From an uncultured Bordetella sp. (GTDB lineage: Bacteria; Pseudomonadota; Gammaproteobacteria; Burkholderiales; SG8-41): 64,000 nucleotides of DNA. Made by a program: the position numbers and the translations under genes. Shown here piece by piece: positions 15,202 through 56,199 of the stretch (positions are counted from its first letter, which is position 1; each line of letters begins with the position of its first letter). The stretch covers positions 45,124-109,123 of the forward strand of contig CAZHJU010000001.1 of assembly GCA_964533495.1 (NCBI GenBank), given 5' to 3'. The notes under the pieces are model-generated. The model did no database searches. It saw only the letters and a program-made list of their open reading frames with translations, and had not been told where the DNA came from.

Positions 15202-16182
15202 TCAGTAGCGGCGGCCGTCCTTGTGCATGAACGCCCACTGTCCCGCGGCGTCGAGCACGGCCTGCAGGTCGTCGTCGGGATAAACCACGCGGTCCCCGGC
15301 GCCGCGGTCTCCGATCTCAAGATACACCACCTCCCCGTCGCCGCGGTTGACGAGCTGGTGCGCGTCGCCGCTGCCGGCGCGGAAACCGGCGCACATGCCC
15401 GGCGCGAGCGGTGTCTCGCCGGCAGCGGTGACGAGCACCGGGCGGCCTTCGAGGACGTAGATGAATTCGTCCTGCGCGCTGTGCGCATGGCGCAGCGCTG
15501 ATACCGCGCCCGGCGCGAGGCGCGTCAGGTTGACGCCGAAGTTCCTCAGTCCGAACAGGTCGCCCAGCGGACGTTTCAGCCGGCCGGCCACCCGCGCCGC
15601 GAAGGGCTCGGGATAGTTCGTCTGCTTCGCTTTCGGCGGCGCTTCGGCGGCCACGATCGCGGTGGGGGACTGGGCTTTGTTCATCGGCGGCTCTGGAACG
15701 GGCCGGGCGGCGGGCCCGGATCGCCCATGGTAGCCGCGCGCCGCGCCGGGCGCGACCATCCCGCGCGGCGCGATGAACCGCTGCCACGCCTGCCGCAGCC
15801 GGCGCGCGGCACCGGTGACCATCGCCGCGAACCAGCGTGCCATCTCCTGCCGGGCCTCGCGGTGCAGCCGTTCCGTGAATCCGGCATCGACGCGGACCAC
15901 GTTGCGCGTCCAGTCCGCGGCGGGAACCGGATCGACACGATGGACGGCGATGCGCGTGCCGTCCCTGATGGCGCTGGCGACGACCAGGCCCGTGCCGGCG
16001 GAACAGTAACGCGCACCGGCCGGAACCATGTGGTCCAGCGGGTCGCCTTCCTGGGTGACCCAGATCAGGCCATCGAGACAGCGAATGACCGTGCCGCGCC
16101 CGGCCGCAACGCGGCGGATGTCACCGGTGGCGAGATCGTGCAATTGCCGTCCGTGCTTGTCGCGGTCTGTTCCGGTGCCCAT
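15202..16182 (-). CDS. DUF2917-like N-terminal domain fused in frame to a cupin domain
   Basis: Single 326-aa ORF with no internal stop. The N-terminus (GTVIRCLDGLIWVTQEGDPLDHMVPAG) resembles DUF2917. The C-terminal ~160 aa (from MNKAQSP...; HAHSAQDEFIYVLEGRP...GFRAGSGDAHQLVN) is a cupin. Divergent from a LysR gene. Confidence 0.6.
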   Translation of the reverse strand: MGTGTDRDKHGRQLHDLATGDIRRVAAGRGTVIRCLDGLIWVTQEGDPLDHMVPAGARYCSAGTGLVVASAIRDGTRIAVHRVDPVPAADWTRNVVRVDAGFTERLHREARQEMARWFAAMVTGAARRLRQAWQRFIAPRGMVAPGAARGYHGRSGPAARPVPEPPMNKAQSPTAIVAAEAPPKAKQTNYPEPFAARVAGRLKRPLGDLFGLRNFGVNLTRLAPGAVSALRHAHSAQDEFIYVLEGRPVLVTAAGETPLAPGMCAGFRAGSGDAHQLVNRGDGEVVYLEIGDRGAGDRVVYPDDDLQAVLDAAGQWAFMHKDGRRY

Positions 16183-16314: not shown

Positions 16315-17286
16315 ATGAACAGCACGCGCGATCTGCCCGCCCTTGATCTGCTGAAGGCCTTCGAGGCCGCGGCCCGCCACCTGTCGTTCACGCGCGCAGG
16401 CGCGGAACTGTGTCTCAGCCAGTCGGCGGTGAGCCGGCAGATCCGGCAGCTTGAAACCCAACTCGGGCTGCCGCTGTTCGTCCGCCGCACGCGCGCGCTG
16501 CTGCTGACCGAGGCGGGCCGGCGCTATTTCCGCGACGTCAGTCAGGCGCTGCACCAGTTGCGCGAGGCCGGCGCGAACCTGCGGGCCGCGCGCGGCGACC
16601 GGGTGGTGACGGTGACGACGGCAATGACCTTCGCCTCGCTGTGGCTGGTGCCGCAGCTCGCGGATTTTCAGCAGCGGCATCCGGACATCGCGGTGCACGT
16701 CGCCGCCGACAACAGCGTGCTCGACCTCGAGCGCGAGCGCATGGACGTGGCGATCCGGTACTCGACGCACCGCCTCGCCGGCCCCGACGCGCTGCGACTG
16801 CTCGGCGAACGCGTGCTGCCGGTGTGCAGCCCGAAGCTGCCCGGCCTGAAGAAACTGCGCGCGCCAGCGGACCTGAAGGGTTTCGTGCTGCTCGAGTTCG
16901 AAGACCCGCAGCAGCTGACGCCCTGGCTGACCTGGGCGGCATGGCTGGAGGCGATGCGTGCGCCGTCGCCCGCGGCGAAGGGCATGCTGCGTTTCAGCCA
17001 CTACGACATGATGCTGCGCACCGCGCTCAACGGCCAGGGCATCGGACTGGGTCGCCTGCCGCTGATCTCGGCGCTGCTCGACGACGGCCTGCTGGTCGCG
17101 CCGCTGGCCGACCGCCGCCACAGCATCCCGACCCCGGACCGCGCCTACTGGCTTATCAGCCCGCCCGCCGCGCGCGAACGTCCGGAGGTGCAGACCTTCA
17201 TGCAGTGGATCCGGGCGCGCATGGCGGCGCTGGAGGGGGGCGGCAGGAAATGCCATGTCGGAGTAAGCACTGACGATCAAATATAA
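16315..17286 (+). CDS. LysR-family transcriptional regulator (GcvA-like)
   Basis: 323 aa. HTH is LDLLKAFEAAARHLSFTRAGAELCLSQSAVSRQIRQLE. Divergent from the DUF2917-cupin gene. Confidence 0.9.
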   Translation: MNSTRDLPALDLLKAFEAAARHLSFTRAGAELCLSQSAVSRQIRQLETQLGLPLFVRRTRALLLTEAGRRYFRDVSQALHQLREAGANLRAARGDRVVTVTTAMTFASLWLVPQLADFQQRHPDIAVHVAADNSVLDLERERMDVAIRYSTHRLAGPDALRLLGERVLPVCSPKLPGLKKLRAPADLKGFVLLEFEDPQQLTPWLTWAAWLEAMRAPSPAAKGMLRFSHYDMMLRTALNGQGIGLGRLPLISALLDDGLLVAPLADRRHSIPTPDRAYWLISPPAARERPEVQTFMQWIRARMAALEGGGRKCHVGVSTDDQI

Positions 17287-17319
17287 ATATTTGTTTTTAT
17301 TAGTATTTTTTATAAATTA
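17279..17319 (+). repeat. AT-rich dispersed repeat, copy A
   Basis: aaatataaatatTTGTTTTTATTagtattttttataaatta. It overlaps the LysR stop codon (TAA 17284-17286). Shares its core with copies at 18451, 38835, 56157, 29803(rc) and 46328(rc). Confidence 0.75.
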
Positions 17320-18356
17320 CCGGCATGCTCTGGCAGCACAGCGGAAATCCGGCACCGTGACGGCAACGATGCCCACGGCACGACCATTCGGCGGTGGCGC
17401 AGCGGCACCCGATCCCGACCGTGCGCGTCCGGCAACCCCGGCCGTTGCGCCCTCACACAGACAGGCGCCGGATCGGCAAAATCACCGATCGACATGCGGA
17501 TCAGCTTGGTCACCTCGCGGCACGCCAGCGAAAGCGGGTGACGCTTCGAGGTGGACAGTGTGACCGTGCGGGTGATGCCCGGACTGACGATCCTTGCCCC
17601 CTGCAATCGTCCCTCCTGCATTTCCCGGGCAATCGCCTGCCGCCACAATATGGCGTAGACGCCCCCCTCGGCCGCGAGGTTCTTCTGCGTGGCCAGCGCA
17701 TCGCACTGGATCAGCACGCGCAGGGAAACGCCGCGCTAACGCGCGAGCTGGTCGAGAACGATGCGCATCGCGTTGGGCGTGCCCGGCAGGACCAGAGGCA
17801 ATTCATGCAGCTGCGCGAACTCGACGCTGCCCTTGCGCAGCAGCGGATCGCCGGCGGAGCCAATCAGGTAGCTGTCGATCGTCACCAGCGGATGGTCCTC
17901 CGGACGCGCATCGCTGCCGTAGCGAAAAAGAATCGCGATGTCGATCTGGCCGGATTCAAGCCATTTGTTCAGTTGCCCCCCGGAACCGTCAAAAATGCGC
18001 AGCTGGATCCCCGGGAACAGTTTCCGCGCGCGGCCAAACAGCTGCGTCACCAAGGGATGCGCGATCGACGGCATGACGCCGACGCGCACCAGTCCGTTCG
18101 GCACGCCGACATCCCCCCGGGCCGAACGCGTGAGTTCATCGGCACTCTCCAGCAATTCCTTGACGCGGGGCAGCAACCGCTTGCCACCTTCGGTCAGGAC
18201 GACACCGCGCCCCGTGCGGTGAAAAAGCGGGCCCCGGCATTCCCGCTCCAGGCTGGCAATCTGCCTGCTGATGACGGATTGCGAAGTCTTGCGCAGACCT
18301 GCGGCGCGGAACACGAGAAAGCGGTGGACTGTAATGAAACCCGGTATAACCCACAA
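17310..18356 (-). pseudogene. LysR-family regulator interrupted by an in-frame TAG
   Basis: ORFs 17736-18356 and 17310-17717 are in the same frame. They are separated by TAG at 17733-17735 (...VLDQLAR*RGVSLRVLIQCDALATQKN...). HTH is QSVISRQIASLE. The only available start is TTG. The true C-terminal extent is uncertain. Confidence 0.65.
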
Positions 18357-18450
18357 GACTATTGAGGAGTTATACAGACATAACTTTCAAGACTGCTGGG
18401 GCCGCTGCCACGAACGGCCGGGGTGACTGACGGAAGCGCGGAAGGGGATC

Positions 18451-18489
18451 TTCATAACTATTTGTTTTCATTGATATTTTTTGATTTTT
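18451..18489 (+). repeat. AT-rich dispersed repeat, copy B
   Basis: ttcataactatTTGTTTTcATTgatattttttgattttt. Same orientation as copy A. It encodes, on the other strand, the last residues ...KSKNINENK* and the stop of the hydrolase gene. Confidence 0.75.
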
Positions 18490-19279
18490 CGCGGATGAAC
18501 ACCAGCGTCTCCCGCGCGCAGTCCTCCGCATCGCTGGCGGCGACGTGGTACGACTTGCCCGGCAGCACCAGCAGCTGCGAATCGGGAATCTGCTGCTGCC
18601 ACTCGCGGGTGCGTTCGACGGTGCCGAGGCCGCTTTCCTCGGTGGTGATGACCAGCGTCGGGCATTTGATTTTCGGCAGCTCGGCGCTGATATCGGCGTA
18701 GTTGATACTGCGGTTGAAGCCGATCAGCGAGGACACCGGCGCGCGGCCCATGAATTTCGTCCACCACTCGACGCCCTTGGCAGGGAAATGCTCGCCCAGG
18801 CGCCCGTCCATCGTGCGCCGCGCCCAGTGCTTGGCGCCCTTCGTTTCGTACTCCTCGATCAGCGCGGGAATCTGCTCCGCGCCGGGACGCCTGGCCTGCG
18901 GCGTGCCGACGACGGTCAGCGACAGCAGGCGCTCCGGACGGCGCGCGGCAAACACGCGGGCGACGGTGCCGCCGATCTTCGCAGCAACGAGGTGAAAACG
19001 CTCGACGCCGAGCTCGTCCATCAGCCGGCAGTAGTCGTCGATCAGCCTGTCGAAGGTCCACTCGTACTCGCGCGGCATCGGTGTCGACCGGCCGTAGCCG
19101 CGCATGTCGGGGCGCACCACGCGAAAATGCCGCGCCAGCACCGGCACCCAGGCATACCAGGACAGGCTGCTCTCGGCGTTGCCGTGGAGCATCAGCACGG
19201 CGTCTGGCGCGGTCCAGGGATCGGTAAAGTCGTCGACGCGGTAAAAGATCTCACAGTCCGCGAGTTTCAACACGGGCAT
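18458..19279 (-). CDS. alpha/beta-hydrolase-fold protein with degenerate nucleophile elbow (A-A-K-I-G-G)
   Basis: ORF 18458-19909. Start moved to ATG 19279 (MPVLKLADCEIFYRVDD...LMLHGNAESS...). The elbow reads HLVAAKIGGTVA, with Lys where Ser is expected. Confidence 0.65.
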   Translation of the reverse strand: MPVLKLADCEIFYRVDDFTDPWTAPDAVLMLHGNAESSLSWYAWVPVLARHFRVVRPDMRGYGRSTPMPREYEWTFDRLIDDYCRLMDELGVERFHLVAAKIGGTVARVFAARRPERLLSLTVVGTPQARRPGAEQIPALIEEYETKGAKHWARRTMDGRLGEHFPAKGVEWWTKFMGRAPVSSLIGFNRSINYADISAELPKIKCPTLVITTEESGLGTVERTREWQQQIPDSQLLVLPGKSYHVAASDAEDCARETLVFIREKSKNINENK

Positions 19280-25053: not shown

Positions 25054-30776
<5,723 letters not shown>

Positions 30777-30780
<4 letters not shown>

Positions 30781-38834: not shown

Positions 38835-38870
38835 ACTATAAGTATTTGTTTTTATTAATTATTTTATGAT
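38835..38870 (+). repeat. AT-rich dispersed repeat, copy C
   Basis: actataagtatTTGTTTTTATTaattattttatgat. It lies in the 49-bp gap between the fbp start (38809) and the tyrS stop (38859-38861). Its right end overlaps the last tyrS codons (..VIIK*). Confidence 0.75.
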
Positions 38871-46327: not shown

Positions 46328-46363
46328 AAAATAAGTTATTTAAAAACAATATCTTATCAATGA
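46328..46363 (-). repeat. AT-rich dispersed repeat, copy F (more divergent)
   Basis: The reverse complement reads cattgataagataTTGTTTTTAaataacttatttt. It abuts or overlaps the ATG (46360) of the DUF218 gene, in the divergent region shared with rplM. Confidence 0.55.
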
Positions 46364-52074: not shown

Positions 52075-52206
52075 GTCTTGCTCCACAAAAAACGACGGGT
52101 ACGAAACGAAACAACAGCAGTCCGGCAATACGCGATCAGCAACGCCAATCGCGACGCCAGCACCGGCCAGCGGCGGCCGTTTCGGACCTTGTGGAGGTGA
52201 ACACGA

Positions 52207-52893
52207 TTAATCTTTTTTAATCAAAGGGATACAGTCAACAAGCGAGCCTACTATAGCATCAACGTCCAAGCTCTGCACAGGCTGCCCTTCGTTGTAGCCA
52301 TAGGGCACGCAGAACACCGGGCAGCCCGCCGCACGCGCCGCGCGCGCGTCGTTCCCGGAATCGCCGATCATCAGCATCCGGTCCGGTGGCACGCCGAATT
52401 GCGCGCTGGCATGCAGCAGTTGCGCCGGGTCCGGCTTCTTGTGCGGCAGCGTGTCCCCGGAAATGGTCTGTGCAAAAAAATGCGCCAGCCCCATGCGCTC
52501 CAGCAGCGGCCCGGTGAAGGCGCCGGACTTGTTGGTCACGCAGGCCAGCGGGAATCCACCGGCCCGGAACTGCTCCAGCCCCTCGCGCACGCCGGGGTAG
52601 ATCGTCGTATGCCGGCCGTTGACTTCGGCATAAAAGCGCTCGAACACCGGCAGCGCCGCCGCCAGCGCCGCCGCATCGGCGCAACCTTCGATATCGCGCG
52701 CCAGTGCGCGTTCGACCAGCCGCGGAATGCCCTTGCCAACGAAGGTGCACACGGTCTCCAGCGGTAACTGCGCATGCCCCAGATGCCCGAGCATCAGGTT
52801 GGTCGCCGCGGCAAGATCGGCAATGGTGTCGAGCAGCGTGCCGTCGAGGTCGATCATCACGGCGCGCACGGGAATCGGAAACGTTTTTTTCAT
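52207..52893 (-). CDS. gph: phosphoglycolate phosphatase (HAD family)
   Basis: ORF 52207-53442. Start moved to ATG 52893 (MKKTFPIPVRAVMIDLDGTLLDT...). HAD motifs are DLDGT, TNK and GDSGND. The last codons (PLIKKD*) are unusually AT-rich. Confidence 0.85.
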   Translation of the reverse strand: MKKTFPIPVRAVMIDLDGTLLDTIADLAAATNLMLGHLGHAQLPLETVCTFVGKGIPRLVERALARDIEGCADAAALAAALPVFERFYAEVNGRHTTIYPGVREGLEQFRAGGFPLACVTNKSGAFTGPLLERMGLAHFFAQTISGDTLPHKKPDPAQLLHASAQFGVPPDRMLMIGDSGNDARAARAAGCPVFCVPYGYNEGQPVQSLDVDAIVGSLVDCIPLIKKD

Positions 52894-56156: not shown

Positions 56157-56199
56157 GACTTATTATAAGTACTTGTTTTTATTGATATTTTTATAAATT
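56157..56199 (+). repeat. AT-rich dispersed repeat, copy D
   Basis: acttattataagtacTTGTTTTTATTGATatttttataaatt. It lies in the convergent gap between the mltA stop (56115) and the cyclase stop (56288). Confidence 0.75.

Follow-up and report, generated by a model that had tools for sequence, protein, structure and literature searches.

An AT-rich repeat pair around a decaying LysR gene probably reflects a dispersed, lineage-specific motif in uncultured Burkholderiales

Short direct repeats around a single gene raise the question of whether they are the ends of a mobile or recombining unit. Such a pair occurs in a 64,000-nt stretch of DNA from an uncultured Bordetella sp. (contig CAZHJU010000001.1 of assembly GCA_964533495.1, positions 45,124 to 109,123; hereafter the window, whose own numbering is used for all positions given without a contig name). 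Two AT-rich stretches in the same orientation, copy A (~17279-17319, with a 30-nt core at 17281-17310, + strand) and copy B (~18451-18489, with a 30-nt core at 18452-18481, + strand), enclose a 1.1-kb segment holding only a dead LysR-type gene. An earlier account made without database searches (the sequence-only reading) took the segment to be a cassette, either a recombination-prone unit or a small insertion with decaying cargo, and proposed that one event had remodelled the 3´ ends of both neighbouring genes. We favour, with a probability of roughly 0.7, ordinary gene decay between two copies of a lineage-specific motif, the A-to-B segment being no cassette.

The repeats themselves are real. 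Both copies are conspicuous in the composition profile of the window, which has a G+C content of 65.8%, and both were recovered by repeat search and by pattern and matrix scans. The repeat search returned the direct pair 17283-17311 / 18454-18482, identical at 25 of 29 positions (86%); over 36 nt in the same ungapped register identity is 27/36 (75%), and over the full AT-rich stretches it is 29/42 with gaps, the longest exact run being 10 nt. The original figure of ~80% identity over ~36 bp was thus fair, if slightly generous.

The pair is not alone, however. A 24-nt degenerate pattern derived from it (TATTTGTTTTYATTRRTATTTTTT), for which 0.00 matches are expected in shuffled sequence, was found four times in the window with at most three mismatches (17288, 18459, 38843 and 56170). 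Seven islands of the window contain 30-nt stretches at ≤25% G+C, and six of these align as copies of one motif, with the consensus tTATAAsTATTTGTTTTTATTGATaTTTTT and flanks that are not conserved. Besides A and B, the copies are c3 (38836-38865, + strand), between the tyrS 3´ end and the fbp start, and c4 (56163-56192, + strand), between the convergent MltA (+) and GAF-PAS-cyclase (-) genes, both found by pattern and matrix; c5 (29808-29837, - strand), in frame within a 1908-amino-acid (aa) UvrA-like open reading frame (ORF; 25054-30780, + strand); and c6 (46330-46359, - strand), the most divergent, within the 5´ end of a DUF218 gene or just ahead of it, the ORF running from 46234 and its Pfam domain beginning at residue 123. 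Copies c5 and c6 came from the AT-island scan and the matrix. The sequence-only reading had missed these four further copies. The seventh island, 52206-52235 (ATTAATCTTTTTTAATCAAAGGGATACAGT), is the one strongly AT-rich stretch of the window outside the family.

We scanned for the motif beyond the window with a log-odds matrix scored against both G+C-rich and AT-rich backgrounds; an nhmmer profile proved too insensitive for a 30-nt AT-rich motif (copy A scored E = 0.9). The relatives sampled are uncultured Burkholderiales metagenome-assembled genomes of 61-66% G+C, designated below by L and a number. In this small sample (0.445 Mb), which includes orthologous and hence non-independent copies, the matrix found 28 further distinct copies, compared with zero in the 0.80 Mb that the same query had retrieved from other taxa. 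When only the six copies of the window went into the matrix, it gave 30 copies in the 0.445 Mb from relatives and 0 in 0.854 Mb from other taxa, so the family result is not circular. The density in the sampled relatives is about one copy per 15 kb. On these comparisons, the repeats are independent members of a family of AT-rich motifs of ~30-34 nt, lineage-specific, dispersed in the genome and located mostly at gene ends. A literature search by motif sequence returned nothing relevant, and the family is apparently an undescribed, clade-restricted signal in uncultured freshwater and soil Burkholderiales. Against Rfam, the window scored no hit at gathering thresholds, nor did 17200-18600 when hits up to E ≤ 1 were admitted, and a tRNA scan found nothing at the repeats.

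These counts speak against repeats that are cassette ends or a duplicated target, since A and B are two of six family members in the window, with more in relatives at unrelated sites. If six points are placed at random in 64 kb, the chance that some pair is no more than 1.17 kb apart is 0.44, and the proximity of A and B therefore needs no special explanation.

The only gene between the copies is indeed of the LysR type, as the sequence-only reading had stated, and it is a pseudogene (17468-18309, - strand) that corresponds to codons 20-299 of 302-aa homologues by tblastn, DNA homology and Pfam. Its 5´ piece matches HTH_1 at positions 18-59 of 60 and LysR_substrate at 4-122, and its 3´ piece matches LysR_substrate at 127-205. 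By tblastn, it is 89% identical at the aa level to residues 20-299 of intact homologues; with the joined translation as query, a protein search returned three intact 302-aa proteins at 86-89% identity together with a 192-aa fragment identical to the 5´ piece. The in-frame TAG at 17733-17735 (CTA on the + strand) was confirmed and replaces Q210, intact homologues reading ..LARQRG.. at this place. An ORF starting with TTG is likewise listed, but the TTG is not the real start. The first 19 codons, the start of the helix-turn-helix, are missing, a 5´ truncation that had gone unnoticed. The HTH_1 match lacks profile positions 1-17 and homology begins only at residue 20; the gene is thus without its start and without the first helix of the DNA-binding domain, in addition to the nonsense codon. 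DNA-level homology to intact LysR genes spans 18309 to 17468 and then ends. A G+C-rich spacer of ~150 nt that matches nothing elsewhere (17311-17467) follows as far as copy A; its counterpart in L008, from the LysR stop codon to the motif core, is much shorter, at 28 nt. The pseudogene appears to have lost its own stop codon, its frame continuing to a TAA in copy A (17310-17312).

Decay of this gene is still ongoing, as indicated by a strain variant (L003, SRR16798009). Two metagenome contigs (L001 and L002) match the window exactly, whereas L003 matches it at 99.4% over 2.3 kb and carries an extra 7-bp deletion, equivalent to window positions 17549-17555, which shifts the reading frame of the pseudogene; its other six differences from the window are point substitutions.

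We compared the orthologous junctions of relatives. Copies resembling A and copies resembling B occur there with or without the dead LysR gene, which ties each copy to its own gene boundary. A-type copies lie in L008 (1952-1981), L007, L019 (12694) and L021 (17254). In L007, an intact LysR gene is followed by the motif, and L008, a 2.3-kb contig without the hydrolase, carries the aconitase gene, an intact LysR gene, one motif in the same relative orientation as A, and LysR1, the gene next to copy A in the window. In L019 and L021, the copy adjoins LysR1 with a different gene on its other side. The B-type motif is found at the hydrolase 3´ end in L009/L022, L020, L024 and L031, the last three with other genes downstream, and it is displaced by ~35 nt in L025. 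It is absent from this position where a dehydrogenase gene directly follows the hydrolase. On this evidence, the boundary of copy B is the hydrolase operon's 3´ end and that of copy A is the junction where pseudo-LysR and LysR1 converge; the motif copies go with the genes on either side rather than with the cargo between them.

The relatives also indicate how the motif arises and disappears. In L017, L018 and L026, a degenerate motif of nearly the same length occupies the hydrolase 3´ end. In L017 (10780-10830) and L018 (3440-3490), whose hydrolases are the most similar to that of the window (92-93% aa identity), it is a G+C-richer version of copy B (..TCAAAAAGAAACCAGCGATAACAAGG..). Such degenerate copies of near-constant length argue for gain and loss by substitution, and suggest that the motif changes in place rather than by insertion or transposition.

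A small mobile insertion, whether MITE-like (miniature inverted-repeat transposable element), cassette-like or carried by a recombinase, would have duplicated an AT-rich target and brought in the LysR gene as cargo that is now decaying. The segment does lie between same-orientation repeats, and there is an empty site with a single copy, an arrangement shared with integron cassettes, pdif modules and insertions with target-site duplications, which likewise show short same-orientation repeats around one gene and relatives with one repeat and no gene. The repeat, however, is a genome-wide family rather than a local duplication; the cores of A and B have 4 mismatches in 29 positions, and each copy is similar to its own orthologues; and the LysR gene is truncated within its coding sequence. 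Homology with L008 does not stop at the repeats, extending from the LysR gene across copy A and on into LysR1, past the supposed end of the insertion. Repeat search and ORF list revealed no terminal inverted repeats at the segment ends and no recombinase ORF, and a BLAST search of plasmids with the A-to-B segment gave only weak LysR-like matches and no similar sequence. In contrast to integron cassettes and pdif modules, the repeats here are dispersed genome-wide and each is orthologously tied to its own neighbour gene, there is neither a recombinase gene nor a site architecture, and the gene is cut inside its coding sequence. We give an insertion hardly any credence, and the A/B pair should not be annotated as a mobile cassette.

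A further explanation is that A and B delimit a recombination-prone unit and that the segment between them has been deleted through the direct copies, with L009 and L022 representing the excision product. Relatives lacking the A-to-B segment and retaining one repeat, which the sequence-only reading had named as a check on its proposal, do exist: in L009-L016 and L022, exactly one motif lies between the hydrolase and LysR1, and it holds both stop codons. The L009/L022 copy is somewhat A-like (AAATA.., ATTAT..) yet lies against the hydrolase in the manner of B, which hints weakly at a hybrid. A and B nonetheless share no exact run longer than 10 nt, far below the requirement of RecA-dependent recombination, and the metagenome contigs that are 100% (L001) and 99.4% (L003) identical to the window retain the segment. 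L009 and L022 are also not the nearest relatives, their LysR1 being only 67% identical at the protein level, and L019, L020 and L027 have junction cargo with one motif or none, such that motif pairs are no regular cargo boundary. Excision between A and B thus seems improbable to us, and the single-motif state of L009 may be either ancestral or the product of a larger deletion.

For gene decay between two resident motif copies, the following history can be proposed. The ancestor would have had the order hydrolase, motif, operator, cargo genes, aconitase, LysR, motif, LysR1; the intact LysR gene adjoins the aconitase gene in relatives. The putative operator corresponds to a conserved non-coding element of ~70 nt (18327-18398, - strand) that was found by blastn to relatives, contains the inverted repeat GTATAAC-N17/20-GTTATAC and has no Rfam match. 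In L027 (10863-10954), this element lies just after the hydrolase and before a short-chain dehydrogenase (SDR) gene, and in L021 (14010-14063), L023 (14037-14105) and L028 (10351-10398) it follows a PrpD paralogue. The element is probably the relic of an operator or promoter for some regulator. A deletion would then have removed everything from the downstream leader of the operator through LysR codon 19, taking the start of the regulator and the intervening content with it and leaving a junction of the leader with LysR codon 20 at about 18310-18326 (- strand). The blastn match to L027 extends to 18292 via the similarity of GCCGCAG(G)TCTGCG to LysR codons 21-25, and this similarity could be microhomology used by the deletion. 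The lesions seen in the gene would have followed: a point mutation giving the nonsense codon, and small deletions, including the one that shifts the frame in one strain. Neither an aconitase gene nor the LysR N-terminus occurs anywhere in the 64-kb window; an inversion model, which placed the aconitase gene and LysR codons 1-19 elsewhere in the window, was dropped for this reason.

Several points weigh against this history and the motif family on which it builds. The ancestral order is pieced together from different relatives, and no single contig has it. Lineages with the intact LysR are known only from contigs of 2-5 kb, and a metagenome scan for further intact-LysR loci added none, returning only distant relatives at ≤58% identity. 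The L009/L022 state could be a deletion between direct copies, in which case the repeats would be mechanistically relevant there. Finally, the sample of relatives (0.45 Mb) is small and its orthologous copies are not independent.

What lies between the hydrolase and LysR1 (window 17287-18457) differs among nearly all of the related species: nothing, a lipoprotein gene, an enolase-superfamily gene with TctC, or 5-6 kb of SDR, TctC, MLE and LysR genes. L019, which has the closest LysR1 (89%), carries a 1.9-kb lipoprotein-like gene and one motif, adjoining LysR1. L020 has the enolase-superfamily gene and the TctC gene with a motif at the hydrolase end only. L021 has 6.5 kb of cargo, with one motif adjoining LysR1 and one ~0.85 kb downstream of the hydrolase, and L027 has 5.3 kb and no motif. 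L035 and L037 have an aconitase gene 3.7 kb downstream of the hydrolase and lack the pseudogene's orthologue. By these comparisons, the junction is hypervariable. Motif copies might then be preferred breakpoints for swapping catabolic modules (SDR, MLE, TctC, PrpD, aconitase, LysR), with the hydrolase-LysR1 junction one of many, although we regard this as quite unlikely. If motif-marked exchange were true, the in-frame copy in the UvrA-like gene would show that the motif is a DNA signal selected in its own right.

The ends of the neighbouring genes bear on the proposal that one event reshaped both. LysR1 (16315-17286, + strand), an intact LysR-family gene by ORF list and Pfam with orthologues in L009, L019-L022 and L027, is convergent with the pseudogene and, as the sequence-only reading had observed, has its stop codon inside copy A (TAA, 17284-17286). 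It was equally correct that the alpha/beta-hydrolase gene (18458-19279, - strand; ORF list, Pfam), the last of a TctC-PrpD-hydrolase operon and a member of a 90%-identity cluster of 102 proteins, takes its tail after ..ETLVFIR from copy B (..EKSKNINENK and the stop). Beyond the conserved ..ETLxFIR, however, hydrolase tails differ in every relative (EKSKNINENK, ESSKRNQR, ASKNI, KL, AI and others), reading into AT-rich sequence wherever the motif is present, and the C-terminal tail of LysR1 is likewise variable. With tails variable in all relatives, remodelling of both 3´ ends by a single event does not hold. The motif has stop codons in two of three frames on each strand, and stop codons are rare at 66% G+C, so ORFs run on until they meet those of the motif; that ORFs end inside the motif follows from base composition and does not mark the genes as remodelled. 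Across the same genomes, LysR1 is far more diverged (67-89% aa identity) than the hydrolase (87-91%).

The gene context of the motif copies was assigned with a gene caller trained on codon usage and with Pfam, and the counts include orthologous, non-independent copies. Twelve copies lie between tandem genes with the T-rich side toward the 3´ end of the upstream gene, eight between convergent genes, five between divergent genes and four between tandem genes in the opposite orientation, and six are inside a gene, at one orthologous site. For the 12 tandem cases, the head end of the motif is mostly 26-140 nt, and up to ~300 nt, upstream of the next start codon. Overlap with stop codons is common, as for LysR1, the hydrolase and tyrS (38859), and in L009 it involves both genes at once. 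The tyrS (tyrosyl-tRNA synthetase) ORF has its last codons and stop from copy c3 (38859-38865), and the fbp start codon is 26 nt past the other end of this copy.

The intragenic copies are c5 and its orthologues in the UvrA-like gene of L020 (942), L021 (1370), L024 (958), L025 (278) and L027 (1216). The encoded protein is a double ABC ATPase, and c5 falls in a variable linker after the Walker A motif. In all six genomes, the site keeps rare AT-rich codons (ATA, AAA, ACA) in proteins that are 76-90% identical, whereas a 50%-identical UvrA-like paralogue has ordinary G+C-rich codons at this place. This codon pattern suggests selection on the DNA sequence itself. A 901-aa ORF at 27070-29775 was rejected as a gene, being the shadow of the UvrA-like gene on the opposite strand.

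What the motif does may be suggested by its conservation. Read on the opposite strand, 34 aligned copies follow the form AAAAAt-ATCAATAA-A(A/T)CAA-N4-TT(R)-TA, with no information in the flanks. C26, A27 and T34 are invariant (34/34), and only purines occur at position 35 (A in 25, G in 9). Within the TTR element, the first T is present in 33/34 copies and the second T and the purine in 34/34, while the N4 positions carry low information overall (0.3-0.9 bits). An A-tract starts 14 nt before the hexamer, with A in 27-31 of 34 copies at positions 9-12 and in 19 of 34 at position 13, and the 8 nt between A-tract and hexamer (ATCAATAA) are conserved. The spacing from A-tract to hexamer equals that of the lambda H' site. 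In a single register, 31/34 copies fit WATCAANNNNTTR with at most one mismatch; the hexamer WATCAA is perfect in 6/34 and has one mismatch in 25 more, mostly T replaced by A.

A canonical IHF site consists of WATCAA near the centre, TTR four bp 3´ of it and a tract of 4-6 A in the 5´ half, over ~34 bp (PMC1874591). The motif resembles such a site in being asymmetric and ~34 bp long, with a 5´ A-tract, near-invariant CAA and TT, and a purine-only R. We tentatively predict that it is a binding site for an IHF-type DNA-bending nucleoid protein, an assignment that we hold at somewhat less than even odds. Two differences tell against it: the third hexamer position is A in 28/34 copies and T in IHF sites, and a conserved 8-nt spacer between A-tract and core is not typical of them.

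The motif might instead be a nucleation site for an H-NS-like silencer, the site of another regulator that binds direct repeats, or a promoter; that it is not of the IHF type but one of these is, in our judgement, a little less probable again. The H-NS family prefers AT-rich islands in G+C-rich genomes, and TATTTG and TATTGA, the direct repeats of the motif that another regulator might bind, lie one helical turn apart. The head of the motif, TTATAa, is -10-like on the opposite strand and faces the next start codon in the 12 tandem cases at the distances given above. The tails of copies A and c4 (TTTATAAATT) fit the H-NS high-affinity motif TCGATAAATT (sequence from PMC6907758) at 8 of 10 positions. 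In Table 2 of that paper, the H-NS and IHF motifs apparently are row-swapped (WATCAANNNNTTR under H-NS and TCGATAAATT under IHF), and the table was not used to assign motifs. The strongest conservation, however, is central and asymmetric, in WA(A/T)CAA-N4-TTR with its purine-only position, and a promoter makes little sense for the eight copies between convergent genes and for the orthologous set inside a gene. A sigma-70 promoter scan of 17100-18700 gave no promoter-like site, in copies A and B or elsewhere, and an intrinsic terminator scan of the same region gave a sole terminator-like site, away from the repeats. Tus/Ter, XerCD/dif and PhoB-type direct repeats were set aside for poor fit or wrong copy number.

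By analogy, the closest counterpart of the family would be the IHF-recruiting intergenic repeats (RIP and related bacterial interspersed mosaic elements, BIMEs) of enterobacteria. Like the RIP/RIB-type BIMEs of E. coli (PMC3479197, PMC2817692), the motif is a dispersed family of short extragenic elements, often at gene 3´ ends or between convergent genes, and carries an IHF-type consensus. Unlike these, it has no G+C-rich repetitive extragenic palindromes (REPs) in the flanks of the 34 copies and is an AT-rich, stand-alone element of G+C-rich Burkholderiales, and, to judge by its degenerate versions of almost equal length in relatives, it seems to change in place and not by transposition. The motif also resembles DNA uptake sequences (USS/DUS) in being lineage-specific and short and in tolerating an in-frame coding copy, but it is longer and more degenerate. 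Uptake sequences are also roughly ten times denser than the ~one copy per 10-15 kb of the motif.

The motif family, conserved at orthologous gene boundaries and once inside a coding sequence, is a more useful result than the repeat pair from which it was derived. If IHF does bind it, the motif would parallel the IHF-recruiting BIMEs of E. coli as an element standing alone, and it would offer a way into the chromosome architecture of organisms that only metagenomes have revealed.

DUF2917 and Cupin_2 domains are joined in one 313-aa ORF (15202-16143, - strand), whereas L009 has two genes of 149 and 160 aa; either two genes have fused in the window or a stop codon has been lost.

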